Shown here piece by piece: positions 3,179-56,200 of a stretch of 64,000 nucleotides of DNA; the first letter of the stretch is position 1; each line of letters starts with the position of its first letter. Below the pieces are notes generated by a model. The model searched no databases, was not told where the DNA came from, and saw only the letters and a program-made list of their open reading frames with translations. Source of the DNA: an uncultured Hyphomicrobiales bacterium (GTDB lineage Bacteria > Bacteroidota > Ignavibacteria > Kapaibacteriales > UBA2268); NCBI GenBank assembly GCA_964509335.1, contig CAZDXB010000010.1, forward strand, positions 3,977 to 67,976, read 5' to 3'. The translations under genes and the position numbers were made by a program.

Positions 3179-3276
3179 TATAGCGACTGACTGCTTTGCC
3201 GACATATTATTTGTTTAACGCGTTCTTTAATATTACGAGGAAACGAGACGTTTTAAATTTGTAAGTTTAATACATT

Positions 3277-9247: not shown

Positions 9248-9316
9248 GCGGTTTATCTAAATAATCTTTGTATTTTTGTTATTTAATGGATATTTATTAT
9301 TAATAAGGAAAGCGAT

Positions 9317-11041
9317 ATGCGCTCGGGAAATTTTCTGTTTGTTCTGCACGCTCATCTCCCTTGGGTTCTGCATCACGGCTACGCCCCGCACGGAACCGAT
9401 TGGCTCTGCGAAGCTGTCGCCGAATGCTACATCCCAATAGTCAACCATCTGAACGAACTAAAAAACGAAAAAAACCAAGCGAAGATAACAATGGACATCT
9501 CCCCCGTCTTATGCGAGCAACTGGAACACAAAGATTTTTCCAAAGTCTTCAAAGAATATTGCGACGAAAAAATAAAATGGGCGGAGAAAGACGAAAAACG
9601 ATTCAAAGAACTTGGCTACGACCCTGCGCAAATCTATATGGCTCAATACTGGCGCGAATGGTATAACGACAGAAAGAACAACTACTTATTTAATTACGGC
9701 GAATCGGTAATCGGAGCTTTAAAAGAACTGCAAGACGACGGGATTTTAGAGATAGCGACCTGCGGCGCCACCCACGGCTATTTGCCGCTTTTGCCGACCG
9801 ACGAAAGCGTAAACCTGCAAATCGAAGCCGCCGTCAATAATTACGAAAAACACTTCCAACGCTCTCCCAGAGGAATTTGGCTACCCGAATGCGCCTACAG
9901 ACCAAGCTACGAATGGAAGTCTTATCTACCAATCGAACCTTTCCATAAACCAAAACTCAGACCCGGAATCGAGCAAATTCTCGCCGCTCACGGTTTGGAG
10001 TATTTTTTCACGGACCAAAACCTAACTGAAAGAACAGCGCCTATCGGAGTTTTCATCGACAATCAAAAAGAGAAATTCATCCCTAAGGACTCGCCCGATT
10101 ACAAAGCGTTTCCGCGAAATTTCGAGGATTTAATATATAAACCGTATATCGCCAGTTCGAGCGAGAAAGTCGAATACGGAACGGCGGCTGTATTCACGCG
10201 ACACAGAGATATTTCAATGCAAGTTTGGAGCGGGGACATCGGCTATCCAGCCGAACCGAATTATTTGGACTTCCACAAAAAACAGTTCGGCTCTAATCTC
10301 AGATACTGGCGCGTTACCGACAGCAAAGCGGATATGATGTATAAAACGCTATACCATCCGGATTGGACTAAAGATAAAATCGATTTGCAAGCGAACCATT
10401 TTATCCATCACATAGAAAACGCCCTTAACTATTATCACAATAACACCGGACAAATCGGAACGCTCTGCGCGCCCTTCGACGCTGAATTATTCGGGCATTG
10501 GTGGTTCGAAGGACCGGATTTTATCAAGTCGGTTTTGAGAGGATTGAGCAATTCGCCTTGGGTGGACGCCTCGACCGCTTCGGAACAATTAAATAGAATC
10601 AACCCGAAAGAAACTCTACGGCTCCCGGAAGGCTCCTGGGGAGTCAACAACAATCACGACGTTTGGTTTAACAAAGACAACAAATGGACTTGGGAAGCGA
10701 TTTACAACAGCGAAAACAGAATTAGGGAAATAATCTCCGAAAACGATACCGGTAATTTAAGCGAAGCGCGCGAACGAACTTTAAAACAAGCCTTAAGAGA
10801 GCTAACTTTGATGGAAGCCTCCGATTGGCAATTTTTGATTCACGCCCGCACAGCGGAAGACTACGCCCAACAGAGATTGTATTTCCATCATTCCGACTTC
10901 AATAAACTTTGCGATTTATTCGAAAAGCGCGACGACAAAGACAACTTTAAAGAAAATGAAATAAAATACTTAGAGCAAGTTGAGCAAAGAAACTCGATAT
11001 TCCCTGAAATTGAAATTGAATGTTACAGGAAGATAATTTAG
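9317..11041 (+). CDS. Glycoside hydrolase family 57 enzyme, 1,4-alpha-glucan branching enzyme-like
   Basis: N-terminal GH57 signature FVLHAHLPWVLHHGY..G.DWL.EA.AECYIP. Length 574 aa, consistent with GH57 branching enzymes that carry a C-terminal DUF1957-like region. Confidence 0.75.
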   Translation: MRSGNFLFVLHAHLPWVLHHGYAPHGTDWLCEAVAECYIPIVNHLNELKNEKNQAKITMDISPVLCEQLEHKDFSKVFKEYCDEKIKWAEKDEKRFKELGYDPAQIYMAQYWREWYNDRKNNYLFNYGESVIGALKELQDDGILEIATCGATHGYLPLLPTDESVNLQIEAAVNNYEKHFQRSPRGIWLPECAYRPSYEWKSYLPIEPFHKPKLRPGIEQILAAHGLEYFFTDQNLTERTAPIGVFIDNQKEKFIPKDSPDYKAFPRNFEDLIYKPYIASSSEKVEYGTAAVFTRHRDISMQVWSGDIGYPAEPNYLDFHKKQFGSNLRYWRVTDSKADMMYKTLYHPDWTKDKIDLQANHFIHHIENALNYYHNNTGQIGTLCAPFDAELFGHWWFEGPDFIKSVLRGLSNSPWVDASTASEQLNRINPKETLRLPEGSWGVNNNHDVWFNKDNKWTWEAIYNSENRIREIISENDTGNLSEARERTLKQALRELTLMEASDWQFLIHARTAEDYAQQRLYFHHSDFNKLCDLFEKRDDKDNFKENEIKYLEQVEQRNSIFPEIEIECYRKII

Positions 11042-11050
11042 CCGACGGAT

Positions 11051-12469
11051 ATGTCCAAAGCTAGAAGAATACTAAAAAATATGCTCTCGCTCTCGGCGGC
11101 TGAAATCGCCAACAAGGGCATCGCTTTGGTAACAATGGCGTATCTCGCCCGAGTGTTGCTACCCGACGGCTTCGGAATAATCGGCTGGGCGAATTCCTTT
11201 ACTATTTACTTCATCGCCGCCGTCAACTTAGGCTTCGAAATCGTAGGCTCTCGCGAAGTAGCTAAAAATCCCGGCGAAATTAGAAAATACGTCAACAACA
11301 TCTTGTCCATCAAAATCTCGACAGCTCTCGCGCTTTACGCCCTTTTAGGCTTAATAGTGTTTCTATTCGTCGATAAACCGCTTTTTGTCAAATGGGTCGT
11401 AATGATTTCCGGGTTGAATCTTTTCGCTCACGCCGTTCTGCTTAATTGGGCGTTCAAGGGGATAGAAAAGATGGAAATCATCGCTCTCCGACAAGCCGCT
11501 ACTAGCGTTCTTAATCTGGTCGGCATTCTTATATTAGTTCACAGTCCTTCCGACATAGCTATCGCTATGTCCGTAACCGTCGGCTCGATGATTTTAAACT
11601 CCTTGTGGATGCTTCTATACTACGTCAAACTTTTCGGACGCGTCCGCTTCGAATATAACTACGACTTCTGGAAAAAACTGTTAAGCTCGTCAATACCGAT
11701 TTCTTTAAACTTTTTTATTATTTCAATAAACAACTACCTCAATATGTTTCTATTGGGATTGATGCGCTCCGACTACGAAACCGGCATTTACAACGCCGGC
11801 TTCAAAGTTCTGGCATTCTCGCTAGCGCCTTCGGGAATTTTGCAAAACGCGTTTTTCCCGCAACTATCGCGTTCGACAACTACCGAAGAACGTCGCAAAG
11901 TAACGGAGAAATACGCCCTGTTAACTTTTTTGGCGGGAACGATTATTTCTTGCGGCATATTCGTTTTTTCCGATTACGTAATAGACGTAGGCTTCGGAGA
12001 TAACTACGGCGATTCGGTTATTGTTCTACAATTACTTATGGTTGGAGCTTTAGTAACTTATTTGAACGTTACGTATTCGGCGCCGCTTCTTAGCTGGAAC
12101 TTAGAAAAATACGTCGTTTGGGCTATGGGCGCGGGCTGCGTAATTAATCTGATTTTTAATTTAATACTAATTCCGAAATACGGAGCAATGGGAGCGGCTA
12201 TAGCCACCGTCCTAACCGAAACCGCCGTGCTTATCGGTCTTGCCGTTATAATGTGGAAAACCATTAAAAAAGTTTATGTCGCGAAATTTTTGGTCGTTTT
12301 TCTCTACGCCGCTTTCTCCTGCGCCGCCGGTTACTTTATTATGCAAGCGAACGTTCATCCGCTAATTGCCGGTTCAATTAGCTTAGTAATCTTTATTTTT
12401 CTTAACTTTATATTCAAGACAATTACAATTGCGGAAATAAAAATGTATTTGAATAAACAAAACAAATAG
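11051..12469 (+). CDS. Wzx-like oligosaccharide/polysaccharide flippase (MOP superfamily)
   Basis: About 12 predicted TM helices. N-terminal S(A)AEIANKG...ARVL.P..FG motif typical of polysaccharide biosynthesis (Wzx) proteins. Length 472 aa. Confidence 0.7.
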   Translation: MSKARRILKNMLSLSAAEIANKGIALVTMAYLARVLLPDGFGIIGWANSFTIYFIAAVNLGFEIVGSREVAKNPGEIRKYVNNILSIKISTALALYALLGLIVFLFVDKPLFVKWVVMISGLNLFAHAVLLNWAFKGIEKMEIIALRQAATSVLNLVGILILVHSPSDIAIAMSVTVGSMILNSLWMLLYYVKLFGRVRFEYNYDFWKKLLSSSIPISLNFFIISINNYLNMFLLGLMRSDYETGIYNAGFKVLAFSLAPSGILQNAFFPQLSRSTTTEERRKVTEKYALLTFLAGTIISCGIFVFSDYVIDVGFGDNYGDSVIVLQLLMVGALVTYLNVTYSAPLLSWNLEKYVVWAMGAGCVINLIFNLILIPKYGAMGAAIATVLTETAVLIGLAVIMWKTIKKVYVAKFLVVFLYAAFSCAAGYFIMQANVHPLIAGSISLVIFIFLNFIFKTITIAEIKMYLNKQNK

Positions 12470-12475
12470 TTAACT

Positions 12476-13600
12476 ATGAAATACGACTATCTTATTGTGG
12501 GAGCGGGATTCGCCGGTTGCGTCTTGGCGGAAAGAATAGCCGAAGAGCTAGACAAGAAAGTATTAATCGTCGAAAAGCGCAACAGCGTCGGCGGCAATTG
12601 CTACGACTTCCCAAACGAAAAGGGCATAATCGTCCACAAATACGGTCCCCACGCATTCCACACAAACAATGAAGAAGTTTGGAATTATTTATCTAGATTC
12701 ACCGACTGGCACGACTATCAGCATAAAGTTTTAGCTTTCGTTCAAGGCAAAAAAATTCCAATCCCTTTCAATCTTAATTCGATAGACCAATTCTTCGCCG
12801 AAAGCAAAGCCGAAGAGTATAAAAAAGCTCTCGTCGATACTTACGGCGAGGACAAAAGAATACCGATTTTGAAGCTAAAAGAGACGGAAAACGACACTTT
12901 GAAAGAGCTAGCCGACTTTGTCTATAAAAACGTTTTTTACGGCTATACAATCAAGCAATGGGGAATGCCGCCCGAAGAACTCGACTTTTCAGTTACGGCG
13001 AGAGTTCCCGTGTTCACCGGAAGAGACGACCGTTACTTCCACGATAAATACCAAGGAATCCCCGCTAAGGGCTACACAAACCTTTTTAAAAAAATAATCG
13101 ACCATAAAAACATAAAACTGGCTCTAAACACGACTTATAGAAAAGTACTCGGAGAAGTGGAATTCGACAAACTCATATACACCGGTCCTATCGATTACTT
13201 CTTCGACTATATGCACGGCAAATTGCCTTACAGAAGCCTAAGATTTCAATTCAATACTCTAAATAAGGAATACTTCCAGGAAACCGCGCAAATCAACTTC
13301 CCAAGCTTTTATCACTATACTAGAATAACCGAGTTCAAGCATTTTTTAAAAAAGTCAAATCGTTTCACTACTATAGCCTACGAATATCCGATGGAGTTCG
13401 AACCCAATATAAACGAGCCTTACTACCCAATACCAAAAGAAGAGAACCGAAAAATCTACGAGAAATATAAAGAAGAAGCGGCGAAAATTGAAAAGAACGT
13501 TACTTTCATCGGAAGATTAGCCGAATACAGATATTATAATATGGACGAAATTGTCGCGGCGAGTTTGCTTGCTTTTAAAAACAAAATAGCGAACAAATAG
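12476..13600 (+). CDS. glf: UDP-galactopyranose mutase
   Basis: YDYLIVGAGFAGCVLAERIA FAD fold. IVHKYGPHAFHTNNEEVW, FNLNS and YYNMDE motifs conserved in Glf. Length 374 aa. Confidence 0.9.
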   Translation: MKYDYLIVGAGFAGCVLAERIAEELDKKVLIVEKRNSVGGNCYDFPNEKGIIVHKYGPHAFHTNNEEVWNYLSRFTDWHDYQHKVLAFVQGKKIPIPFNLNSIDQFFAESKAEEYKKALVDTYGEDKRIPILKLKETENDTLKELADFVYKNVFYGYTIKQWGMPPEELDFSVTARVPVFTGRDDRYFHDKYQGIPAKGYTNLFKKIIDHKNIKLALNTTYRKVLGEVEFDKLIYTGPIDYFFDYMHGKLPYRSLRFQFNTLNKEYFQETAQINFPSFYHYTRITEFKHFLKKSNRFTTIAYEYPMEFEPNINEPYYPIPKEENRKIYEKYKEEAAKIEKNVTFIGRLAEYRYYNMDEIVAASLLAFKNKIANK

Positions 13601-13682
13601 CAAAGGGATTCTGAGCTATATTTCATAAATTTGATTTTTTGATTTTTCAACTAAAGCGGATTTTGAAATAAGCTAATAGGGA

Positions 13683-15122
13683 ATGGAAAACGACAAACAA
13701 CAAAACGAAACGCCTCTTTGCGTCGATTTAGACGGAGCTTTAATACATACCGACTCCCTAGCGGAAAACTTCCTTTTAGCTCTGAAGAAATCGCCGTTCG
13801 TTATATTTCTCTCGCTTTTTTGGATAACTCGAGGCAGAGCTTACTTGAAAAAACGCTTAGCCGAAATCGCTATCCCCGACCCCGAAATATTGCCTTACAA
13901 CAAAGACGTATTAGAATACGTTAAAGCGGAAAAAAATAAGGGCAGAAAAATAATTTTGGCGACCGCGACCGTAAAACCAATAGCCGAATCAGTCGCAAAA
14001 TACCTAGGCGTATTCGACCGAACGCTTTCCACCGTTGGCGACGTAAACCTTCGTTGCAAAAACAAACGAGACGCTTTAATTGAGTTATTCGGCAAAAAAG
14101 GATTCGATTATCTCGGCGACAGCAAAGCCGATTTGCCCGTCTGGGAGGCGGCGAATAAAGCTATACTTGTCGAGCCTACAAAGAAAGTTGAAAAGAAAGC
14201 TCGTAAGAAATCCAAAGTAGAAAAAGTCTTTATAAAACAAAGAAAGCCGATTAAAGTTCTTATAAAACAGATTCGCGTCTATCAATGGGTAAAAAATATA
14301 CTCGTCTTTTTGCCGTTTCTGTTGGCGCACGAACTTCACTTTACGCATCTTTACAAAGGTATAGCGGCGTTTTTCGCTTTTAGCTTTACCGCTTCGTTCG
14401 TTTACGTCCTAAACGATTTGCTAGATTTAGAAGCGGACAGAAGACATCCGAGAAAAAAATTTAGACCGCTTGCTTCAGGCTTTTTAACTCTCAAATCCGG
14501 AGCTACGGCGGGATTATTCTCAATTATTATCGGACTCGCCGTTTCAATTTTCTTTCTGCCGATTGAATTTCTATATATTTTACTCATTTATTTATTTTTA
14601 ACGACTTCTTATTCCTTTTTCTTAAAGCGGATAATTATAGTGGACGTAATCACTCTCGCCTGCCTTTACACCTTAAGACTGCTGGCGGGAGCGGCGGCTG
14701 TGCAAGTCGAGGCTTCGCCTTGGCTCCTCGGTTTTTCCATCTTCTTGTTCCTCAGCTTGGGAATCATTAAAAGATATACCGAGCTTTCGGGAGTCAAAGA
14801 ACAAAATAAATCAAAAATAAAAGAACGCGGATATAGAATAAGCGATTTAGCTTTTTTAAGCTCGGCTGGACCGGCTAGCGGATATATTTCAGTTTTGGTT
14901 CTGGCGTTGTACGTAAACGGCGAAAAAGTAGCCTCGTTATACAGCGTCCCGCAAGCGCTATGGGTAGTAGTTTTGAGTTGCCTATTCTGGATTTCTAGAA
15001 TGTGGCTAAAAGCTTTTAGAGGCGAAATGCACGACGACCCAATAGTATTCACCGCGAAAGACCCCGCTAGTTATATAGTCGGACTAATTGTAGCTGGAAT
15101 AGCGATAGGAGCGAGTTTATGA
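13683..15122 (+). CDS. Fusion of an N-terminal HAD-like hydrolase domain to a UbiA-family prenyl-phosphate phosphoribosyltransferase (decaprenyl-phosphate 5-phosphoribosyltransferase-like, Rv3806c type)
   Basis: HAD motif I DLDGAL and motif IV GDSKADLP in the first 160 aa or so. Then 8-9 TM helices with UbiA motif NDLLDLEADRRHPRKKFRPLASG and a conserved C-terminal region. Confidence 0.7.
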   Translation: MENDKQQNETPLCVDLDGALIHTDSLAENFLLALKKSPFVIFLSLFWITRGRAYLKKRLAEIAIPDPEILPYNKDVLEYVKAEKNKGRKIILATATVKPIAESVAKYLGVFDRTLSTVGDVNLRCKNKRDALIELFGKKGFDYLGDSKADLPVWEAANKAILVEPTKKVEKKARKKSKVEKVFIKQRKPIKVLIKQIRVYQWVKNILVFLPFLLAHELHFTHLYKGIAAFFAFSFTASFVYVLNDLLDLEADRRHPRKKFRPLASGFLTLKSGATAGLFSIIIGLAVSIFFLPIEFLYILLIYLFLTTSYSFFLKRIIIVDVITLACLYTLRLLAGAAAVQVEASPWLLGFSIFLFLSLGIIKRYTELSGVKEQNKSKIKERGYRISDLAFLSSAGPASGYISVLVLALYVNGEKVASLYSVPQALWVVVLSCLFWISRMWLKAFRGEMHDDPIVFTAKDPASYIVGLIVAGIAIGASL

Positions 15123-16447
15123 ATATAACGGCTTATGAATCTTGGGGCAGATATCCGAAATTATACCCCTCGGAAGTAGAAAGAATATTTTGGCGGGACG
15201 AATTGCCCGACTTATCAAAATACAACAAGCCGGTTTTGCCATACGCATACGGCAAAAGCTACGGCGACAGTTGCTTAAACGAAAACGGAATTTTACTAGA
15301 CGTTAAAGGATTGAATAAATTAATATCCTTCGACCAGAAAAACGGAATAATAAAATGCGAAGCCGGCGTTACGCTCGCGGAAGTTTTAGACTTTGCAATT
15401 CCTAGAGAATGGTTTCCCGCTTCGACGCCCGGAACAAAGCATATTTCCGTCGGCGGCGCTTTGGCGAACGACGTTCACGGCAAAAACCATCACAAAAGCG
15501 GAACTTTCGGGCGCCACGTTGTCAGCTTCGAATTAGTCCGCTCTTCTGGAGAAAGATTGATTTGCTCCCGCGAACAAAACGAAGAACTATTCAAAGCGAC
15601 AATTGGCGGACTTGGATTGACCGGCTTGATTACTTGGGTAGAATTCAAATTACAGTCCTGCCCCAGCGCGTTTCTCGAAATGGAGAGCGAAAAATTCGAT
15701 TCTCTGGAGGAATTTTTCGAAATAAACGAATATTCGGAAAAACGATTCGATTATACGGTTGCATGGGTTGACACTACCGCTTCGTCTTCGAGGCTTGGTC
15801 GCGGAATTTACAACAGAGGCAACCATGCTTCGCCGGAAAAGCATAACTTGCCAAAGCCGCCAAAACCGAAGCAAATACCAATGCCTATAGAAGCGCCGTT
15901 CATAAACCATTGCTCGACGCTAGCTTTTAATACCATGTATTTTAACATACAAATGTATAAAACAATCGACCAGATTATACATTACGACCCGTTTTTCTAT
16001 CCGCTCGACGCCGTCGCGAACTGGAATTTAGCTTACGGCAAAAACGGATTCATCCAATATCAATTCGTCGTCCCATTCGAGAAAGGCGCCGAAGCGATAA
16101 AATTAATTTTAGAAAAAATCGCCGCCTCCGGCATGTCTTCTTTTTTGACCGTGCTTAAGACGTTCGGAGACGTTAAATCTCCCGGCACGATGTCGTTCCC
16201 TCGCCCGGGAATAACATTAGCGGTGGATTTCCGTTACGACGGCGAAAAAACGCTAAAAAAGCTCTTAGAATTAGACGAAGTAGTTAGAGGAGCGGGCGGA
16301 GTCATATATCCGGCAAAAGACGCGCGAATGCTCGCCGAGGATTTCAAAATATTTTACCCGCAATGGAAAGAATTTTCAGATTACATAGACCCTAAATTCT
16401 CCTCGAGTTTTTGGCGGAGAGTAACAAAAAACGACAATAATTATTAA
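15119..16447 (+). CDS. FAD-binding (PCMH-type) oxidoreductase, DprE1-like (decaprenylphosphoryl-beta-D-ribose 2-prime oxidase family)
   Basis: ATGA overlap with the upstream gene. FAD-binding domain with GGALANDVHG. 442 aa with a C-terminal ALO-like region. Genomic context with UbiA PRTase and SDR. Confidence 0.65.
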   Translation: MNITAYESWGRYPKLYPSEVERIFWRDELPDLSKYNKPVLPYAYGKSYGDSCLNENGILLDVKGLNKLISFDQKNGIIKCEAGVTLAEVLDFAIPREWFPASTPGTKHISVGGALANDVHGKNHHKSGTFGRHVVSFELVRSSGERLICSREQNEELFKATIGGLGLTGLITWVEFKLQSCPSAFLEMESEKFDSLEEFFEINEYSEKRFDYTVAWVDTTASSSRLGRGIYNRGNHASPEKHNLPKPPKPKQIPMPIEAPFINHCSTLAFNTMYFNIQMYKTIDQIIHYDPFFYPLDAVANWNLAYGKNGFIQYQFVVPFEKGAEAIKLILEKIAASGMSSFLTVLKTFGDVKSPGTMSFPRPGITLAVDFRYDGEKTLKKLLELDEVVRGAGGVIYPAKDARMLAEDFKIFYPQWKEFSDYIDPKFSSSFWRRVTKNDNNY

Positions 16448-16459
16448 TAATAAAACAAC

Positions 16460-17206
16460 ATGAAAGCTATGAAAAAAATATTGATTTTTGGAGCCGCTTC
16501 GGCAATCGCGAGCGAAACGGCGAAACGATTCGCCGCCGAAAAAGCCGATTTATTCCTCGTAGATTTAAATTTATCGCGATTAGAAGCGACGAAAGACGAC
16601 ATTCTCGCTAGATTTGAAACTAACATTCATTTAAAAGAAATGAACGCTCTCGAATATGAAAATCACGATAAATTATTCGAAGAGGCGGCTGAAACACTCG
16701 GCGGGCTCGACGACGTTTTAATCGCCCACGGAACCCTGCCCGACCAAGACAAAGCGCTTTACGAGCCGAAAACAATGGAAAAAGAACTGAATATAAATTA
16801 CGTCAGCGTAGTTTCTTTAGCGCAAGCCGCGGCGAATTTCTTTGAAAAGCAAAAACGGGGTTGCGTCGCCGTAATATCTTCCGTCGCCGGCGACAGAGGA
16901 CGCCAAAGCAACTATCTATACGGCTCGGCTAAAGGGGGCGTAACGGCTTTCCTGCAAGGACTGAGAAATAGAATGGACCAATTCGGAATAAAAGTAATTA
17001 CTATTAAGCCCGGCTTGGTTGATACACCAATGACCGCCCATCTACCGAAAAATCCTTTATACTCAAAACCGGAAGACATCGGCAAAATAATATACAACGC
17101 AATGAAAAAGGGCAAAGAAATAGTTTACGCCCCAAGCTTCTGGCGATTCGTAATGCTCGGAATAATCCACACGCCCGAAGCCATTTTTAAGAAATTAAAA
17201 TTGTAA
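16460..17206 (+). CDS. Short-chain dehydrogenase/reductase, DprE2-like
   Basis: Rossmann motif IFGAASAIA. Catalytic YxxxK (YGSAK). 248 aa. Context immediately downstream of the DprE1-like gene. Confidence 0.6.
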   Translation: MKAMKKILIFGAASAIASETAKRFAAEKADLFLVDLNLSRLEATKDDILARFETNIHLKEMNALEYENHDKLFEEAAETLGGLDDVLIAHGTLPDQDKALYEPKTMEKELNINYVSVVSLAQAAANFFEKQKRGCVAVISSVAGDRGRQSNYLYGSAKGGVTAFLQGLRNRMDQFGIKVITIKPGLVDTPMTAHLPKNPLYSKPEDIGKIIYNAMKKGKEIVYAPSFWRFVMLGIIHTPEAIFKKLKL

Positions 17207-17585
17207 AGAATACCGCCACAGAACTCGTAAAGACGCAATATCTTGCGTCTCTTAAACGGAACGTAGAGCGGACGCCCTCGTCTGCTCTAAAATAGTAATT
17301 CTTAATTAGTCTGCTCTAAACTAGTGATTCTTAATTAGTAATTATTTTACGAAGACGGGGGCGTCTTCGCTACTATAGCGATAACCGACAGCTTCAGCTG
17401 TCGGCTGGCAATAAAAGGCGTCCTGAACATAGGCAGATAGCTAAAGAGACTGTCTAAAAAGCTATCTGTTACCCTTTGATTATCATTCTTCTTTTAAAAT
17501 TCCAATTTCGGAAGGCGCCAAAAAAAAAGAGACGCAATATCTTGCGTCTCTACTTCTGAACTAAATCTTTTTCGTTCTGAGAATT
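17207..17585. repeat. Repeat-dense intergenic region
   Basis: Two copies of hairpin gagacgcaatatcttgcgtctc (17222.., 17529..). Tandem repeat of about 30 bp tctgctctaaa(a/c)tagt(a/g)attcttaattagt x2. Hairpins gaagacgggggcgtcttc, cgacagcttcagctgtcg and cagatagc...gctatctg. A half-copy of the TTCCAATTTCGGAA element. Confidence 0.6.
17520..17551 (-). terminator. Rho-independent terminator of pnp
   Basis: Perfect 10-bp stem agagacgcaa/ttgcgtctct, followed on the minus strand by a run of nine T. Confidence 0.7.
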
Positions 17586-29210: not shown

Positions 29211-30164
29211 TTATGCCTCTTTGCTAATCTTAGAGCCGAAATTCATTTCCTTCGGGTCAACCAATCGCTCCAAAGCGCCGTCCGCCCTATAAAAATACGG
29301 CAGCGACTTAATCCGTTCGTCAAAATCAGCCTCGACGCTTTCTTCTCTTTCAAAAGCTATTTCCTCGCCAAAAATTGAACCGTCGCGAACGCCGAGATTT
29401 TCTTTGACTAATTCCAAATAATCGTCGTTTATTTCGTAACCTATAGAGCTTCTCCCAAGATTTTTAGCCGCCAATGAAGTAACGCCGCTACCCAAAAAAG
29501 GGTCTAATACCGTCTCGCCGACGAATGAATACATTTTGATAAATCGTCGCGGCAACTCCTCGGGAAACGCGGCTAAATGCTTGCCCTGCTTAGCTCCGGC
29601 AAAATTCCAATGCCCCGAAAAATAATTCTTCCATTCCTCTTTAGTCATTTCCGACGCTTCCTTTTGCTCTTTCGTCGGTTTTGGAGCCTTGCCCGGCTTC
29701 TTAAAAATCAAATTAAACTCGTAGTCAATCTCCACTATCCCGTTTCTCGGATACGGATACGAACCCATAATTACCGCGCCGCCCGTCGTGTTCATTGTGG
29801 TTCTCTTTTGCCAAATGATAGCTCCCATATAATCGAAGCCGATTGTCTCGGCGAACTTAATAATCTCCGTCCTAATGGGAATAATCTTATACCTACCGTA
29901 ATAAACCGAGCGAGCGAATTGGTCGCCTACGTTGACAATCATTTTACATCCGGGATGCAAAACCTCGAAGCAACGCGCCCAAACTAGATTCAGATGATTT
30001 ATATACTCTTCGTATGTTTGGTCGTAGCCTATTTGTTCTTCTTTTCCGTAATCCTTCAGTTGCCAGTAAGGCGGTGAAGTTACTATTAAATGAACGCTCC
30101 CGTCTTCGAACGATTTCATCAATCGAGAGTCGCCGATTATTATTTTATGAGACGTATTATGCAT
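29211..30164 (-). CDS. DNA methyltransferase, beta-class amino-MTase (PF01555 type). The SPPY motif suggests N4-cytosine, or N6-adenine.
   Basis: Motif IV SPPY at residues about 30-33. Motif I DPFLGSGVT near the C-terminus (the circular permutation typical of the beta class). Confidence 0.8.
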   Translation of the reverse strand: MHNTSHKIIIGDSRLMKSFEDGSVHLIVTSPPYWQLKDYGKEEQIGYDQTYEEYINHLNLVWARCFEVLHPGCKMIVNVGDQFARSVYYGRYKIIPIRTEIIKFAETIGFDYMGAIIWQKRTTMNTTGGAVIMGSYPYPRNGIVEIDYEFNLIFKKPGKAPKPTKEQKEASEMTKEEWKNYFSGHWNFAGAKQGKHLAAFPEELPRRFIKMYSFVGETVLDPFLGSGVTSLAAKNLGRSSIGYEINDDYLELVKENLGVRDGSIFGEEIAFEREESVEADFDERIKSLPYFYRADGALERLVDPKEMNFGSKISKEA

Positions 30165-39759: not shown

Positions 39760-40542
39760 GTGAATAAATGGACAAAACTAAGTATTGAATACGCTAACCA
39801 AAGGTCGTATCTTGACGACTTATTTCAAGTTTATCCCACAATTCCCGAAGGCGTTAGAGAAATCGACCAAGAAATTTGGACCGAAGTAGAGAAAGCCTTC
39901 AATCGCAAGGACAATAAATCGCTAATTAAAAAATTGTTGACGCTAGACTTATTCCCCATTAAAGACAGCTATGTCGCTTATTTGAAAAGAGACAAAACGG
40001 CAATTGAAAGAAATCCTAGAACGATTAACCGTATTAGCGGTAGGCTTTACGAAATGGGACTGGATAAAATATTTGAAAGATGCAGCGAACCGAAAGAAAC
40101 AAATCGTCAAATTGGACCGATGTTCAGAAATTGGATTAGTAAAAAATCGTTGGGAATTGAACCGGTCAATTTGAAAATTTTTTCCGCTAACGAAAAAGAC
40201 GGCGTTTTGGAAGCTGGCGATAAAGCAATGATGGATTTCGCTAAGGAACGTCTGGGATACAAGTTAAATAAAGGCTTAGACTTTATCGGCAGATTCAACG
40301 GCAAATATGTAATCGGCGAAGCAAAGTTCCTAACCGATTTCGGCGGGCATCAAAACGCCCAATTCAACGATGCAATTAATACGCTCAAAGCGAAAGGCGT
40401 TAAAGCTGAAAAAATCGCTATACTAGACGGAGTCCTATATATCAAAGGTCAAAACAAAATGTATAAAGCGATAACCGAGAAGTACAAGAACGTCAACATT
40501 ATGAGCGCCCTTGTTTTAAGAGAATTTTTATATCAATTATAA
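39760..40542 (+). CDS. Putative type II restriction endonuclease (PD-(D/E)xK-like)
   Basis: Immediately upstream (4-bp gap) of a DNA MTase. Candidate catalytic signature D(FIGRFNGKYV)IGEAKF. No other family match. 260 aa. Confidence 0.5.
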   Translation: MNKWTKLSIEYANQRSYLDDLFQVYPTIPEGVREIDQEIWTEVEKAFNRKDNKSLIKKLLTLDLFPIKDSYVAYLKRDKTAIERNPRTINRISGRLYEMGLDKIFERCSEPKETNRQIGPMFRNWISKKSLGIEPVNLKIFSANEKDGVLEAGDKAMMDFAKERLGYKLNKGLDFIGRFNGKYVIGEAKFLTDFGGHQNAQFNDAINTLKAKGVKAEKIAILDGVLYIKGQNKMYKAITEKYKNVNIMSALVLREFLYQL

Positions 40543-40546
40543 CGCT

Positions 40547-41608
40547 ATGGAAAATTTACTTATAAAAAGCGATAATATTAAAGGATTAAATTACCTTCTT
40601 GATGAAAGGCGTTTAGAAGGCAAAATTGACTTAGTCTATATTGACCCCCCTTTTGCAATTAGCCGAAATTTTACCATAACAGACAGTAGAGCTTCGACAA
40701 TAAGTAACGCGAGAAACGGTAACATCGCCTACGCCGACAAATTATTGGGAAACGAATTTATAGAATTTCTGCGACAAAGATTAATTCTACTTAAAAAACT
40801 ATTATCGGTAAAAGGCTCAATTTACCTACATACTAATTATAAAATCGGCCATTACGTAAAAGTAATGATGGACGAAGTTTTCGGTCCTAAAAATTTTAGG
40901 AACGACATAACAAGAATAAAATGTAATCCAAAAAATTTCAATCGAGTCGGTTACGGGAATATGAAAGACTTAATTCTGTTTTATTCAAAATCCTCGAGCC
41001 CAATTTGGAACGAACCTAAAGAAAAATATTCACAAAGAGACCTTGAAAAGCTCTTTCCTAAAAAAGACAAACACGGAAGAAGATATACAACCGTGCCAAT
41101 CCATGCTCCGGGAGAAACCGAAAACGGAAAATCAAATCAGCCGTTCAAAGGGATAATGCCGCCCGAGGGAAGACATTGGAGAACCGACGTGGAAACCTTA
41201 GAGCGTTGGGATAAGAAAGGTCTTATCGAGTGGTCGTCATCAGGCAATCCAAGAAAGAAAATCTACGCCGACGAGAGAGAAGGAAAAAGAGTGCAAGATA
41301 TATGGGAATACAAAGACCCTCAATACCCATCATATCCAACTGAAAAAAACGAAAAGATGCTCGATTTAATTATTAGAACATCGTCAAATAAAAACAGTAT
41401 AGTTATAGATTGTTTTTCCGGCTCCGGCGTTACGCTTAAATTAGCACAGATTAACGGTAGAAAATGGATAGGTATAGATGATTCAGAACACGCTATTAAA
41501 GCGTCGATAGAAAAAATTGAGAAAATCGAAGACAATCTATTTGACGAGAAACCTAATTTCAATTACATTGACTTAGAAAAAAAGCGAAGAAGAGAGAAAC
41601 GCGTATAA
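40547..41608 (+). CDS. DNA methyltransferase, beta-class amino-MTase (N6-adenine or N4-cytosine)
   Basis: Motif IV DPPF near the N-terminus (LVYIDPPFA). Motif I DCFSGSGVT near the C-terminus. 353 aa. Confidence 0.8.
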   Translation: MENLLIKSDNIKGLNYLLDERRLEGKIDLVYIDPPFAISRNFTITDSRASTISNARNGNIAYADKLLGNEFIEFLRQRLILLKKLLSVKGSIYLHTNYKIGHYVKVMMDEVFGPKNFRNDITRIKCNPKNFNRVGYGNMKDLILFYSKSSSPIWNEPKEKYSQRDLEKLFPKKDKHGRRYTTVPIHAPGETENGKSNQPFKGIMPPEGRHWRTDVETLERWDKKGLIEWSSSGNPRKKIYADEREGKRVQDIWEYKDPQYPSYPTEKNEKMLDLIIRTSSNKNSIVIDCFSGSGVTLKLAQINGRKWIGIDDSEHAIKASIEKIEKIEDNLFDEKPNFNYIDLEKKRRREKRV

Positions 41609-51907: not shown

Positions 51908-52786
51908 TTATATATCAAAACTCAACGAAAAACATAACGATTGCTCGAGCTGTCTTGTCGCCGAATAATACTTGTCGTATAAAAGACGCATTGAATAATC
52001 TATCTCAAATATATCGTAACGGAGCGAAGAGGAGCCTAAAACGCTAACTCTCGAGTTCTTCAAACTAGTAAACTGGTCTTTTTTGCCTAACGCGTTCGCG
52101 CTAAACGACAGAGAATAAGTTAAATCCTCCACTATTTCTCTATCGTACTCTAGTTCAAACGTCGCGCTATATCCTAATTCCTTAGCCGAATTGACCCTTA
52201 TTTCTTCTCCCTTTTTTAAAGTAAAATCGTCGGTATAAGTCTCCTGATAAGAATAACCGACGCCGTATGTCAAGGATAATCTATTAGAACCGTTTTCCGA
52301 AACGGAGTAATGCTTCTGTCCAATGAATAATGTATTGTAAACAAATAGCGGGTCCATAAAACCTGTCTTCCTATCCCCTATTTTGCCTTCCCCCATTTCG
52401 GTCTCCGCCGTGGTTTCGAAAAAGAGTCTTACTTTAGGAACGTTCCAAATTGTCATAGACGGACATATACTTAATATAAAATCGTCTTGCGTTTTGATCG
52501 GCAACTCCTTTTTATAATGGCTTTGCCCGTAATTCATATACAAATCGACTTTAAAACCAAAGGTCTCGCCTTCCAAATCCAACTTTGATTCCAGCTTAGA
52601 ATTCCACTGCAAACTCTCGTTTTCGTTGCCGGCAGAACTTTCTCCGGAAAAAATCAAACCGGCGGAAGGATTAAATCGAAAATAAACGTCTAATCCTTTT
52701 TCTTCTTCCTCTTCGGCTTTCGCAAAACCGCTAAGCAAGAAGCAAAGCATTAAAGCAAACGTTGTATTTATTTTTGACAACCTCAT
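51908..52786 (-). CDS. Hypothetical outer-membrane beta-barrel protein
   Basis: Signal peptide MRLSKINTTFALMLCFLLSGFAKA. Alternating amphipathic beta-strand pattern. Confidence 0.45.
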   Translation of the reverse strand: MRLSKINTTFALMLCFLLSGFAKAEEEEEKGLDVYFRFNPSAGLIFSGESSAGNENESLQWNSKLESKLDLEGETFGFKVDLYMNYGQSHYKKELPIKTQDDFILSICPSMTIWNVPKVRLFFETTAETEMGEGKIGDRKTGFMDPLFVYNTLFIGQKHYSVSENGSNRLSLTYGVGYSYQETYTDDFTLKKGEEIRVNSAKELGYSATFELEYDREIVEDLTYSLSFSANALGKKDQFTSLKNSRVSVLGSSSLRYDIFEIDYSMRLLYDKYYSATRQLEQSLCFSLSFDI

Positions 52787-52987
52787 AATACAAATATTAA
52801 CAATTATTCATTTTGAAACAAATTTTTATTTAAAAATGAACAGAGTATTAATGTTTTGTAATCAAAACGTTTGCGCAAAAGTATCCTTGCCTTTTAATTG
52901 TCGTAAAAATTTGGACGTTCTATTAAAAAAAACGGAACCCCCAAATAAAATTGAGAGTTCCGCTTAAAAACCATCGCGCGTCGAAAA

Positions 52988-53554
52988 TTACATCTTCACG
53001 AACCTCTTTCCGATTTTCTCGTCGCCGGAATCCAACATTATATAATAAACCCCCGGCGCTAAATCCGAAACGTCCATTCGATAGACGTTCTTTCCTCTTT
53101 GCAAAGATACGCCGAGTTTTTGGCGAACAGTCTCGCCCAAAGAATTATATATATTAACGGCGGTTTCCGTATAAACTTCGCCCGATTTAATTTCCAAATT
53201 TACAATGTCGCTTACGGGATTGGGATTGACGCTCAAAGACAAACCGGAGACAACTCCGCTTTCAACTTTCGCCGGAACGCCCTCGCCCTGAGTTAAAGTA
53301 ATTGTCTTGTTTATTTCGGCAACCTCGAACTTCTCGTAATCGGGAATCTCGCCCGTCCAAGTTACCACAATCGAATCGACGCTCGCGCAATCGCCGAGCC
53401 CGTAATACAGCCTAGCCGGTCTTTGCGACCTGACTCCGTTGCCGGCGGTTACCTCTTGAGTAAACTTTTTATCGCCGTTCCAATACTTCAACGTTTCCGC
53501 TTGGGAAACAACCGTTAACGCAAGAAACGCCAATAAAATCTTCTTTATCATCAT
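52988..53554 (-). CDS. Secreted protein with a T9SS C-terminal sorting domain (type A CTD)
   Basis: Signal peptide. C-terminal about 80 aa carrying the Por-secretion CTD signature (...NIYNSLGETV...GKNVYRMDVSDLAPGVYYIMLDSGDEKIGKRFVKM). Confidence 0.7.
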   Translation of the reverse strand: MMIKKILLAFLALTVVSQAETLKYWNGDKKFTQEVTAGNGVRSQRPARLYYGLGDCASVDSIVVTWTGEIPDYEKFEVAEINKTITLTQGEGVPAKVESGVVSGLSLSVNPNPVSDIVNLEIKSGEVYTETAVNIYNSLGETVRQKLGVSLQRGKNVYRMDVSDLAPGVYYIMLDSGDEKIGKRFVKM

Positions 53555-53642
53555 CCAATATCTCCTAAGATAAACTAAAACTTAACAATGAAATTAATCA
53601 GTTTTGAAAATAAAACTTTTCTATGAAATAGCAAAAAGGCTA

Positions 53643-53723
53643 CGCAACTCGCCTACCTCCGTCCTCGTCGTCAAACAATACGAAGGACTCGTAAAATCAG
53701 CAACAAAAAGGGTTATGGGGTGA
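53643..53723 (+). repeat. Direct repeat copy 2: an orphan in-frame 3-prime gene fragment homologous to the end of the permease-Usp gene
   Basis: Encodes RNSPTSVLVVKQYEGLVKSATKRVMG*, versus RNSPASVLVVKQYEGLVKTAIKRVMG* at the end of the intact gene. Confidence 0.85.
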
Positions 53724-53766
53724 TTTTTATCATAAGGGTTGTAAGACTAGAAAATAAAGTTTATAA

Positions 53767-54885
53767 TTATGCGTGTGAAACAGTTATTTTGTATCGTTTA
53801 TGTAATATTTCGGATAAAGAAATCGCATTCGACCAATTCTCATTATTTTTTATCCAATAATATGATTGAGGCGGTTTTAATTCAGAACCGATTAAATGGT
53901 TGAGCTGAGTTAATGGAATAGGCGCGGTATATCTATTAAAATTCTTAAAAAATATCGAATAAATCTCCTTAGTATCCTTTGTATATTGAAAATATTCTTT
54001 CTCCGAACAAGCAATTTTTTCTTTGTACTTATCCCAAATTAATGTAGGGGGATTTTTCTCTATAGCGTCGATTGTAACATATCCATGTATCTCTTGACTC
54101 GGCTTAGATGAATATAATACCACTTTACAGCCCTTTAGATTTGCATTAAAATATTTGCGAATTTCTACGGTCTTTTCGCCAGACTTAATTTTATCAAAAT
54201 AATCGGGCTTAATACTCATTACTATCCCATTTTGTATATCGTCGTGATACTTAATAAAACGAGAGTTTAATTTAGGCAATTTATTGATAATATTATTCCA
54301 AACAGTATTAAAAGACGCTCTATTAATTAATTCTCGGTCGCCGTTACGATATTCTTTTGTATATTTCGATACATTGTCAAAACCGAAAGATTGGAAAAAA
54401 TCTCTTTTTTCGCTCCAAAGACTTTCAGGAAACGTAAAGAAGATTTGCTTAGCATGTCTCTTTGCGTTGTTAGCCATTAAAGTAAAGAATAATTCGCCTA
54501 AATTATAATTTTGATAATCCTTGTCGATATGCAAATGACAAAATTTAGATAACTCGCCTAGTTTAAGAACGGCAGTGGCAATCGGCAAATTGTCAATATA
54601 ACCAACATAGGCAATTCTTTCGCCGTTTTTAATACCCGGTTTTACTTTATCTTTAAACCAAGTCTTAATATTGGGATAATCAACCTCGTGTCTTTCAATT
54701 AACGCCGCCATATTCAATAATGAATCGTGCTTGAAGTCGATATTATCTTTATCAATAGACTCAATAGTCAAGGTCAACTCTTCTGAAAATAATTCGTAGT
54801 TATTTATTGTTTTCATTTTCTTTCTATTCATCATTCTTTCTCCAATCTTTAAAATATTTAGATAATTGAAGTTCTTGTTCTCCAT
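53767..54885 (-). CDS. GNAT-like acetyltransferase domain fused to a C-terminal ASCH (PUA-like) domain. True start probably the internal Met at about 54816.
   Basis: ASCH signature MSIKPDYFDKIKSGEKTVEIRK (GxKxxExR). N-terminal region with a GNAT-like core (IAYVGYID...LGELFF). Lies in an AT-rich island. Confidence 0.55.
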   Translation of the reverse strand: MENKNFNYLNILKIGERMMNRKKMKTINNYELFSEELTLTIESIDKDNIDFKHDSLLNMAALIERHEVDYPNIKTWFKDKVKPGIKNGERIAYVGYIDNLPIATAVLKLGELSKFCHLHIDKDYQNYNLGELFFTLMANNAKRHAKQIFFTFPESLWSEKRDFFQSFGFDNVSKYTKEYRNGDRELINRASFNTVWNNIINKLPKLNSRFIKYHDDIQNGIVMSIKPDYFDKIKSGEKTVEIRKYFNANLKGCKVVLYSSKPSQEIHGYVTIDAIEKNPPTLIWDKYKEKIACSEKEYFQYTKDTKEIYSIFFKNFNRYTAPIPLTQLNHLIGSELKPPQSYYWIKNNENWSNAISLSEILHKRYKITVSHA

Positions 54886-56116: not shown

Positions 56117-56200
56117 CTCAATAGTAACTCGCTGACATACAACTAATTACTATTCTCAAATTTAGAATTGCGAAAATGCATAGTAATTCGTAATTGAATA

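Follow-up and report, generated by a model that had tools for sequence, protein, structure and literature searches.

Five-gene cluster and its gene layout

In the 64-kb stretch of DNA analysed here (the window), a flippase gene and a gene for a galactofuranose-forming enzyme are followed by three genes resembling those of the mycobacterial D-arabinofuranose (Araf) route. This raises the question of what the five genes make, and whether they act together. The cluster very probably makes a lipid-carried D-Araf donor, beside the galactofuranose-forming enzyme and the flippase. Going by the sequence, the locus is likely to consist of two modules, a polyprenyl-P-D-Araf donor line (13683-17206) and a Wzx-Glf pair. 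What the genes are, their family placement, their catalytic residues, their distribution and their synteny were read from the data, and from these we infer the substrates, the Araf product, the lipid carrier, the role of the flippase and the acceptor.

All five genes are co-directional on the + strand. A Wzx-like flippase of the MOP/PST family (11051..12469, 472 aa) is followed after 6 nt by Glf, UDP-galactopyranose mutase (12476..13600, 374 aa) and, after a further 82 nt, by a HAD-UbiA fusion (13683..15122, 479 aa). The fusion gene is coupled by an ATGA start/stop overlap (15119..15122, + strand) to a gene for a DprE1-like, FAD-dependent, putative polyprenyl-P-ribose 2'-oxidase (15119..16447, 442 aa; E1). 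A gap of 12 nt (16448-16459) separates the latter from a gene for a DprE2-like SDR, the putative 2'-keto reductase (16460..17206, 248 aa; E2). An earlier sequence-only reading of this DNA had proposed the same order (wzx, glf, HAD-UbiA, FAD oxidase, SDR) and the same domain content. The coordinates and the profile matches agree with it on both counts, but the ATGA overlap, which it had placed between the last two genes, lies between HAD-UbiA and the oxidase. Since the five ORFs match their profiles nearly end to end, there are no fragments among them. The HAD-UbiA protein is encoded with identical sequence on an independent assembly (L001), where the Wzx-like protein, Glf and the oxidase are 99-100% matches and the oxidase is cut by the contig end.

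Directly upstream, 9 nt before the Wzx-like gene, lies a GH57 alpha-glucan branching-enzyme-like gene (9317..11041, + strand; Pfam Glyco_hydro_57 1.1e-36, BE_C 5.2e-21). This adjacency was seen in at least 15 related loci, and GH57 is probably co-transcribed with Wzx-Glf. It is a context gene, outside the pentofuranose chemistry.

The Bacteroidota-type -7 box TAnnTTTG is enriched in the window (83 copies versus 51.5 ± 6.9 in shuffles). One copy lies at 9271..9278 on the + strand, 39 nt upstream of the GH57 start, and TAAATTTG lies at 13626..13633 on the + strand, in the Glf/HAD-UbiA spacer and 50 nt upstream of the HAD-UbiA start. The + strand gaps right before Wzx (9 nt) and Glf (6 nt) contain no TAnnTTTG copy. 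Because both motifs are consensus matches only, we assign them as candidates: the first as promoter of a GH57-Wzx-Glf transcription unit, the second as internal promoter of the three arabinose genes (the trio), which look like a second module with its own promoter-like motif. A palindromic hairpin at 17231..17252 (+ strand), 25 nt past the DprE2-like stop codon, may mark where the transcription unit ends; the identical sequence recurs at 17530-17551, where it is the terminator of pnp on the opposite strand.

Separable Wzx-Glf and arabinose modules

The HAD-UbiA fusion was found in at least 579 species of many phyla. In 48 of 69 HAD-UbiA loci whose downstream flank is 3 kb or longer, drawn from genomes of many phyla, E1 and E2 follow directly downstream. 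Most genomes carry the trio without Wzx-Glf, among quite different neighbours. Many relatives of the Ignavibacteria/Kapabacteria/Chlorobiota lineage repeat the exact five-gene order. In this lineage the cluster lies within a conserved housekeeping block, in the window beside nusA-infB-truB-rpsO-pnp. The sequence-only reading had expected an FCB example with this gene order to be new, and D-Araf donors outside the Corynebacterineae to be restricted to a few cases. Neither expectation survives these relatives and the wide spread of the fusion with DprE1/E2. With the general pathway published in 2024 and present in hundreds of bacterial species, the cluster is an ordinary new example of it.

Gene context shows that the Wzx-Glf pair and the Araf trio can exist apart. 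At least 12 related loci carry the pair and lack the trio: in L084 it stands among housekeeping genes, in L085 it accompanies GT2/GT9 genes, and ten further loci are L089, L095, L096, L104-L107, L117, L127 and L133. One locus (L088) has the trio on the opposite strand relative to Wzx-Glf, and another (L102) has the trio with Wzx and without Glf. In this lineage the Wzx-Glf pair is inherited vertically, and only some genomes have the trio linked to it.

Do the two modules then serve two unrelated glycans? If they were neighbours only by inherited gene order, there would be no Galf-plus-Araf glycan. The trio-less loci, the differing neighbours of the trio in most genomes, the inverted trio of L088 and the candidate internal promoter at 13626 all favour such a separation. 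On the other hand, the adjacency persists across Wzx proteins that are only 35-55% identical, in one locus with the label Ignavibacteria (L002), one with the label Chlorobiota (L042) and on several other contigs. In addition, the 82-nt spacer in the window contains no terminator-like site on the + strand, and mycobacteria likewise cluster glf with ubiA (Rv3806c-Rv3809c). On balance, we regard two unrelated glycans as rather unlikely. The matter touches the coupling of the modules only and leaves the function of the trio in Araf donor synthesis unaffected. The link between the Galf and Araf modules is drawn from adjacency in one lineage and may be plain synteny; among Ignavibacteria, Kapabacteria and Chlorobiota relatives, no glycan that contains Araf or Galf is known.

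Flippase and glycosyltransferase

The Wzx-like protein matches PF01943 (Polysacc_synt, MOP/Wzx) with 120.8 bits against a gathering threshold of 28.2, as well as PF13440, and has about 10 or more TM helices. Domain and topology are thus those of a Wzx/PST-type MOP protein. The sole specific NCBIfam model, Wzx_EPS, gave 57 against a cut-off of 800. The subfamily of the protein is small and specific to the lineage, and its members almost always lie beside glf, with or without the Araf trio. Glf scored 433.3 bits with TIGR00031, above the equivalog cut-off of 303.75, with 2-371 of 378 matched (PF03275 5.8e-72), and is assigned as the enzyme making UDP-Galf. The most likely role of the Wzx-Glf module is to provide UDP-Galf and to flip a lipid-linked oligosaccharide, which could be the acceptor later decorated by Araf.

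In the three-component system of extracytoplasmic pentofuranose addition, exemplified by C. youngae O1/O2, a synthase (ORF15, HAD-PRP + UbiA PPPRS) is accompanied by a small transporter (ORF14) and a GT-C transferase of GT136 (ORF12) (PMC11127046). The window departs from this arrangement. The ORFs of the 64-kb window include no GT-C, encoded with the synthase or elsewhere, no small SMR/GtrA/EamA-type flippase (no small 3-4-TM ORF) and no Galf transferase, and no glycosyltransferase domain was found among those scanned. Apart from Wzx and HAD-UbiA, multi-TM ORFs are limited to an amino-acid permease and a CNNM protein, in agreement with the proposal that the GT-C transferase lies outside the window.

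The Wzx-like protein is the sole transporter in the cluster, and it might itself flip polyprenyl-P-Araf in place of the GtrA/SMR/EamA-type small transporter. The GT-C/GH57/Wzx/Glf/trio block of the relatives likewise has no other transporter, except for an EamA gene after E2 in L007. In L102, which lacks Glf, Wzx is directly followed by a methyltransferase-like ORF (put in the FkbM type by eye) and then by the trio. In the accounts available to us, it is not settled for mycobacteria or for Pseudomonas which protein flips the D-Araf donor. Against this role, the most constant partner of the subfamily is Glf and not the trio, and in many Wzx-Glf loci the trio is absent from the surrounding 5-9 kb. 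The trios of Proteobacteria rely on GtrA or small EamA proteins, the genes of which are present in their loci as in L007. PST-family Wzx proteins, moreover, are flippases of polyprenyl-diphosphate oligosaccharides. We therefore consider a role in flipping the Araf donor improbable and favour the lipid-linked oligosaccharide as the likely cargo.

Syntenic relatives encode a 526-aa membrane protein without a Pfam match between DUF3467 and GH57, two genes upstream of the Wzx-like gene. The top 22 PDB matches of its predicted structure (pLDDT 91.4) are all GT-C enzymes, including ArnT, AftB, AftA and AftD, and according to this model it is a GT-C-fold protein. A homologue (31% identity, 8e-46) lies within the trio of an Acidobacteriota locus (L032). 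No sequence similarity was detectable between the GT-C-fold protein of the relatives and the multi-TM protein, likewise without a Pfam match, encoded after E2 in proteobacterial loci (L077 type). One could imagine that the whole block in the housekeeping region (GT-C, GH57, Wzx-like, Glf and trio) builds a core envelope glycan with Galf and D-Araf, with the Wzx-like protein and not a GtrA/SMR-type transporter flipping polyprenyl-P-Araf. Such a glycan would parallel arabinogalactan chemistry in a Gram-negative host, but this combination as a whole seems to us quite improbable.

DprE1-like oxidase and DprE2-like reductase

The oxidase contains a PCMH-type FAD-binding domain (PF01565, FAD_binding_4, 1e-20). 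Its best PDB matches are DprE1 chains (1.4e-67, residues 42-425), with cytokinin oxidase next at 1e-10 and xylitol oxidase at 1e-6. With the NCBIfam DprE1 equivalog NF053785 it scored 331.2 bits (next model 57 bits), below the cut-off of 500, and it is therefore filed as DprE1-like and not as an equivalog. K400 in YPAKD aligns with the catalytic Lys418 of the M. tuberculosis (Mtb) YTAKD motif, and the sequence HGKNHH is found at residues 120-125.

The reductase has an SDR fold (PF00106, adh_short, 4e-36) with Y154-x3-K158 and the glycine-rich GAASAIA at 11-17. PDB DprE2 (21gq_C) matched residues 8-247 with 2.8e-35, compared to 1.4e-17 for the next entry and ~1e-14 for FabG. The protein reached 183.3 bits with the DprE2 equivalog NF053786 (cut-off 250) and passed NF005489 (PRK07102) with 286.8 bits (cut-off 267). 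As both proteins fall under the equivalog cut-offs, the identity of their reactions is assigned by homology and not by membership in a trusted clade.

These scores might also fit a pair that makes no Araf, the donor staying polyprenyl-P-ribofuranose or becoming another pentofuranose or a keto-sugar. Indeed, other epimerases yield Xylf in C. youngae O2, and E1 and E2 are altogether missing in 15 of the 69 HAD-UbiA loci, so that Ribf donors must be common. Nevertheless, the two proteins match DprE1 and DprE2 along their full length and by very wide margins, and they keep the catalytic Lys and the YxxxK motif, which makes a different product very unlikely. The same is indicated by the cases that Kelly et al. 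looked at, in all of which DprE1/E2 homologues go with Araf and an ORF13-type epimerase with Xylf (Kelly et al., PNAS 2024, PMC11127046).

HAD-UbiA fusion

The fusion consists of an N-terminal HAD domain (approximately residues 10-175) and a C-terminal UbiA-type domain (approximately 190-479). It matched NCBIfam NF006088 over its full length (residues 3-478 on profile positions 5-480 of 482) with 609.5 bits, well over the curated cut-off of 351. The runners-up were decaprenyl-phosphate phosphoribosyltransferase models (110-137 bits), and UbiA/CyoE/MenA-type models gave 16-40 bits. The best PDB match of the UbiA domain is Rv3806c (8j8j, 7.7e-26), followed by DGGGP synthase (3.3e-5). Source annotations do name homologues '4-hydroxybenzoate polyprenyltransferase', but there is next to no chance, given these scores, the fusion to a HAD phosphatase and the translational coupling to DprE1/E2 homologues, that the UbiA domain is a prenyltransferase of aromatic compounds, of the quinone or haem kind, and that the cluster is unrelated to sugar donors.

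In the UbiA domain, the first Asp-rich motif NDxxDxxxD and the loop-IV Arg/Glu are present as N244, D245, D248, D252, R364 and E367, which are invariant in 25 relatives. HAD motif I (DxDxT) reads DLDGA in the window protein. Its two aspartates, D15 and D17, do not vary among the relatives, and Ala replaces a Thr that is at least 90% conserved in them, a point that counts against the assignment. The catalytic residues are collinear with D18, N247, D248, D251, D255, R366 and E369, which were mutated in C. youngae ORF15 (PMC11127046). ORF15 makes farnesyl-P-Ribf from PRPP, and its HAD aspartate mutant accumulates the 5-phosphate product; a fused HAD domain standing in for the Rv3807c phosphatase has thus been shown experimentally for the same architecture (PMC11127046). 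We assign the window protein to this characterised type of polyprenyl-phosphoribose synthase (Kelly et al. 2024). Its HAD domain is predicted to be a phosphoribose-5-phosphatase and its UbiA domain a polyprenyl-phosphate 5-phosphoribosyltransferase, which together would yield polyprenyl-P-ribofuranose from PRPP.

The Rv3806c-like UbiA domain, the DprE1-like oxidase and the DprE2-like SDR of the sequence-only reading are all borne out. As the three enzymes are closest, among solved proteins, to Rv3806c, DprE1 and DprE2, none of the groupings it had named as counter-evidence (unrelated PCMH oxidases, generic FabG, quinone/haem prenyltransferases) was found.

Predicted route and known systems

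In the proposed route, the UbiA-type domain would move ribose-5-phosphate from PRPP onto polyprenyl phosphate, probably undecaprenyl phosphate, the host being a Gram-negative FCB bacterium. The fused HAD domain would then strip the 5-phosphate. C2' would be oxidised by the DprE1-like flavoenzyme, and reduction of the keto intermediate to the arabino configuration by the DprE2-like SDR would complete the ribo-to-arabino epimerisation. Once flipped, the donor would serve a periplasmic GT-C in the decoration of an envelope glycan.

The locus shares with the C. youngae three-component system the fused HAD-UbiA synthase and a predicted polyprenyl-P-pentofuranose product for periplasmic use, and with the variants whose glycan carries Araf the DprE1/E2-like genes, here directly downstream (Kelly et al., PNAS 2024, PMC11127046). 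However, its synthase adjoins a 472-aa MOP/Wzx protein and Glf instead of a GT-C and a small transporter, and the cluster lies in a housekeeping region, not in an O-antigen or capsule locus.

DprE1/E2 homologues are also tied to D-Araf in P. aeruginosa pilin, rhizobial Nod factors and Araf-containing O-antigens, as far as the available descriptions go. In those accounts, D-Araf pilin glycosylation in Pa5196/PA7 (PsPA7_6245-6251 with TfpW) and the rhizobial noeC(N)HOP operon for Nod-factor arabinosylation likewise use non-actinobacterial Rv3806c/DprE1/DprE2 homologues and a lipid-linked D-Araf donor. Unlike the window, both are described as having, in the cluster or close to it, a separately encoded phosphatase, a GtrA-like protein and a transferase of their own (TfpW or NoeP), and these descriptions report no glf or wzx there.

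The mycobacterial DPA pathway comprises Rv3806c, Rv3807c, DprE1 (Rv3790) and DprE2 (Rv3791), with glf (Rv3809c) nearby. The predicted order of PRPP transfer, dephosphorylation, 2'-oxidation and 2'-reduction is the same in the window, as are the homologous transferase, oxidase and reductase and the linkage to glf. In contrast to mycobacteria, the window has no Emb/Aft transferases, the host is Gram-negative and the carrier is probably undecaprenyl and not decaprenyl phosphate. The predicted phosphatase is the fused HAD domain, replacing the separate PAP2-type Rv3807c. Finally, the non-catalytic Cys387 of Mtb DprE1, the benzothiazinone target, aligns with an alanine (A368) in the DprE1-like protein.

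Organization of the cluster

An ORF listing of the window reproduced exactly the coordinates of the five co-directional plus-strand genes that the sequence-only reading had proposed as an operon for a lipid-linked D-arabinofuranose (D-Araf) donor. The first gene encodes a MOP/Wzx-like flippase (Pfam Polysacc_synt; 11051-12469, 472 aa, approximately 10 TM helices), and the second encodes Glf (12476-13600, 374 aa), which scored 433 bits with TIGR00031 (cut-off 304). They are followed by a HAD-UbiA fusion (13683-15122, 479 aa), a DprE1-like FAD_binding_4 oxidase (15119-16447, 442 aa) and a DprE2-like SDR (16460-17206, 248 aa), these three assigned with both Pfam and NCBIfam. Profile matches were nearly end-to-end for all five proteins. 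The ATGA overlap that had been placed between the last two genes was not found there: the overlap (15119-15122) joins the fusion and the oxidase gene, and the oxidase and SDR genes are separated by 12 nt. A search for the remainder of the 94-kb source contig gave only an identical Logan contig of 4.5 kb.

A GH57 branching-enzyme-like gene (9317-11041; Pfam, alpha-glucan) lies upstream of the Wzx-like gene with a gap of 9 nt. This adjacency is repeated in at least 15 related loci and could reflect either a functional link or mere synteny. Downstream of the cluster, the opposite strand carries the housekeeping operon nusA-infB-rbfA-truB-ribF-rpsO-pnp, in which NusA, IF-2, TruB, RibF and PNPase were assigned by Pfam, and rbfA and rpsO by ORF size and position only.

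Family placement of the three enzymes

The whole fusion matched NCBIfam NF006088 with 609 bits (cut-off 351). For its UbiA domain, the top PDB match was the mycobacterial Rv3806c (8j8j, 7.7e-26), followed by an archaeal DGGGP synthase (3.3e-5), and NCBIfam phosphoribosyltransferase models gave 110-137 bits compared to 16-40 for UbiA, CyoE and other prenyltransferases. Profile scores and PDB ranking together rule out a quinone/haem prenyltransferase. The FAD enzyme matched DprE1 across residues 42-425 (1.4e-67), far ahead of cytokinin oxidase (1e-10) and xylitol oxidase (1e-6), a ranking that excludes an alditol or cytokinin oxidase. In the same way, the SDR aligned over its whole length with DprE2 (21gq_C, 2.8e-35), the second match being at 1.4e-17 and FabG-type enzymes at approximately 1e-14, which dismisses a FabG identity. 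Thus, none of the three rival family placements that the sequence-only reading had named as counter-evidence was seen in PDB or NCBIfam. Both downstream enzymes scored below the NCBIfam equivalog cut-offs (331 vs 500 bits for the DprE1-like and 183 vs 250 bits for the DprE2-like protein).

Characteristic residues are retained in all parts: D15 and D17 in the HAD domain; N244, D245, D248, D252, R364 and E367 in the UbiA domain; K400 in the oxidase, the counterpart of K418 in Mtb; and Y154-x3-K158 in the SDR. Mtb Cys387 is replaced by Ala368 in the oxidase. HAD motif I (13725-13739) is DLDGA where DLDGT is usual; of 25 relatives, at least 90% have the Thr. Both the nucleophilic and the acid/base aspartate are intact.

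A proposed route to a D-arabinofuranose donor

D-arabinofuranose was long held to be a hallmark of mycobacteria. In the proposed route, the UbiA domain would join polyprenyl phosphate and PRPP to polyprenyl-P-ribose-5-P, from which the HAD domain would remove the 5-phosphate; 2'-oxidation by the DprE1-like enzyme and 2'-reduction by the DprE2-like enzyme would then yield polyprenyl-P-D-Araf. Strong homology and a characterized prototype underlie these four steps. The prototype, ORF15 of Citrobacter youngae, has the same HAD-UbiA architecture and converts PRPP to farnesyl-P-ribofuranose, and the 5-phosphate builds up when its HAD domain carries D18A (PMC11127046). Its mutated residues D18, N247, D248, D251, D255, R366 and E369 are collinear with those of the fusion in the window (PMC11127046). 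Family placement, kept residues and this prototype back the interpretation as a lipid-linked Araf donor route.

According to Kelly et al., a synthase, a transporter and a GT-C transferase form a widespread route for pentofuranose addition, and DprE1/E2 homologues were present in every case of an Araf-bearing glycan (PMC11127046). In the inferred later steps, a transporter would flip polyprenyl-P-D-Araf and a GT-C transferase would move Araf onto an envelope glycan in the periplasm; the lipid carrier and the acceptor are inferred as well. Most likely, Glf and the Wzx-like protein belong to the route for a lipid-linked oligosaccharide with Galf, and this oligosaccharide may also be the Araf acceptor. 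The case for the neighbouring Wzx-like protein as flippase of the Araf donor itself is weak.

Outside the actinobacteria, the P. aeruginosa cluster for D-Araf on pilin and the rhizobial noeC(N)HOP operon are earlier precedents. A DNA search of E. coli genomes, meant to tie the window protein directly to the published E. coli example of Kelly et al. and run with an enterobacterial homologue as query, gave no match, and literature searches on Bacteroidota, Ignavibacteria or Chlorobi found no report of DprE1 or Araf. If the proposed route holds, members of a poorly studied FCB lineage add D-arabinofuranose to an envelope glycan via the fused-synthase version of the pathway, shown by Kelly et al. 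to be general, whose known range would grow by one more phylum-level group, and 13683-17206 would be a compact three-gene cassette usable in glycoengineering. The cluster reveals no new mechanism; its single wider point of interest is the identity of the donor flippase.

Distribution and modularity

More than 7,600 relatives of the fusion were found in the protein collection (E <= 1e-10), and at least 579 species genomes carry it, from groups including Ignavibacteria, Kapabacteria, KSB1, Acidobacteriota, Verrucomicrobiota, Nitrospiraceae and alpha-, beta-, gamma- and deltaproteobacteria. Among the 69 fusion loci whose downstream flank covers 3 kb or more, DprE1-like and DprE2-like genes lie directly 3' of the fusion in 48, the oxidase alone follows in six, and neither enzyme in 15. 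In proteobacterial loci, four genes recur after this trio: those for a 9-TM protein without a Pfam family, an NAD-dependent epimerase, a flavoprotein resembling amine oxidases, and either GtrA or a small EamA protein. The set of 9-TM protein, epimerase, flavoprotein and GtrA occupies 11940-16450 of locus L077, and similar sets occur in L012, L020, L029, L060 and L061. The extra epimerase and flavoprotein suggest that the pentofuranose donor is modified further there.

The nearest relatives of the fusion are 47-62% identical and labelled Bacteroidota, Ignavibacteriae, Kapabacteria or FCB group, and the window shares synteny with a Chlorobiota MAG (L042). The Wzx-like protein is a member of a small subfamily specific to the lineage. 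Metagenomes were scanned for this subfamily with a narrow Wzx alignment and then searched by tblastn with the window proteins. The conserved block reads [DPBB]-TPR-DUF3467-[multi-TM protein]-[GH57]-Wzx-Glf-[HAD-UbiA-E1-E2], E1 and E2 being the DprE1- and DprE2-like enzymes. The complete five-gene order, or its beginning on early-ending contigs, was found in the window, L002, L003, L007, L011 and L042, and further in L082/083, L097, L109, L111, L113 and L114. The order had been thought new in the FCB group; as it recurs in these loci, it is in fact common in the lineage.

Other arrangements also occur. The trio is reversed on the other strand in L088; in L102, Wzx is followed by a methyltransferase-like ORF (put in the FkbM type by eye, with no profile search) and then the trio, with no Glf. 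The trio is absent within 5-9 kb of Wzx-Glf in L084, L085, L089, L095, L096, L104-L107, L117, L127 and L133, and located elsewhere in the FCB-type genomes L004, L005, L014 and L040. Wzx-Glf and the Araf trio thus behave as separable modules. The MAG records L003, L005, L007, L011 and L040 show FCB-type synteny (TPR-DUF3467-GH57-Wzx-Glf...), with proteins 47-51% identical to those of the window, and their titles 'uncultured Hyphomicrobiales' look wrong.

A candidate arabinofuranosyltransferase family in relatives

The sequence-only reading had noted that no GT-C transferase lies in the window, and three approaches agree with it. TM scans and Pfam searches of nearly all ORFs found no GT-C, GtrA/EamA small flippase or any glycosyltransferase in the window, and tblastn of the window with four GT-C candidates from relatives found no homologue. 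Three features of the cluster are worth recording: its site in a housekeeping region, its link with a Wzx-Glf pair specific to the lineage, and the lack of an adjoining GT-C or small flippase.

In syntenic relatives, a protein of 526-554 aa with 11 TM helices and no Pfam family is encoded between DUF3467 and GH57, namely in L007 (4161-5741, protein P0249), L089, L095, L096, L097, L099 and L127; a further homologue is encoded at L032:11445-13154. The L032 homologue, from Acidobacteriota (31% identity, 8e-46), lies inside the trio, in the order HAD-UbiA, 11-TM protein, E1, E2. An AlphaFold model of the 11-TM protein (pLDDT 91.4, pTM 0.91) had only GT-C proteins among its top 22 PDB matches (ArnT, STT3/PglB, AftB, AftA, AftD, ALG9, Emb; TM-scores approximately 0.5), and D42-D43 past the first helix are invariant in the family. 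This widespread family, with its confidently predicted GT-C fold, probably supplies the cognate arabinofuranosyltransferase and is a candidate for a new family of such enzymes. It is absent from the window; therefore, the copy of the window genome, if any, is encoded elsewhere.

Promoter-like boxes, repeats and other features of the window

The Bacteroidota-type box TAnnTTTG occurs in 83 copies in the window (51.5 +/- 6.9 in shuffles), frequently 12-50 nt 5' of start codons, e.g., at 3254, 6300, 9271, 13626, 46596 and 62596. This enrichment fits an FCB-group origin. Consensus matches before GH57 (9271-9278) and in the 82-nt Glf/HAD-UbiA spacer (TAAATTTG, 13626-13633) would fit two transcription units, as far as such matches alone indicate. 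A scan of the window for sigma-70 promoters and terminators gave counts at chance and is uninformative for the phylum of the host; an Rfam scan of the window gave zero matches.

From the DprE2-like gene to pnp, the intergenic region 17207-17585 contains two copies of one 22-nt palindrome (AGACGCAATATCTTGCGTCTCT; 17231-17252 and 17530-17551), which flank a 273-nt segment carrying a tandem 29-nt repeat (17280-17337). This arrangement may represent a terminator hairpin shared by both directions, or else a small repeat element. Positions 639-658 hold a similar palindrome.

A low-GC island (52000-56200, GC 0.33-0.38) encodes on the minus strand an ASCH-domain protein (53767-54885; PADLOC candidate defence family PDC-M11B, 2.4e-26) and an adjoining dCTP-deaminase-like protein (54824-56116), and is a possible anti-phage island. 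Another patch (39760-41608, GC 0.38) contains genes for a Tsp45I-type restriction endonuclease and an adjoining N6/N4 DNA methylase, and a second, apparently solitary N6/N4 methylase is encoded at 29211-30164 on the minus strand.
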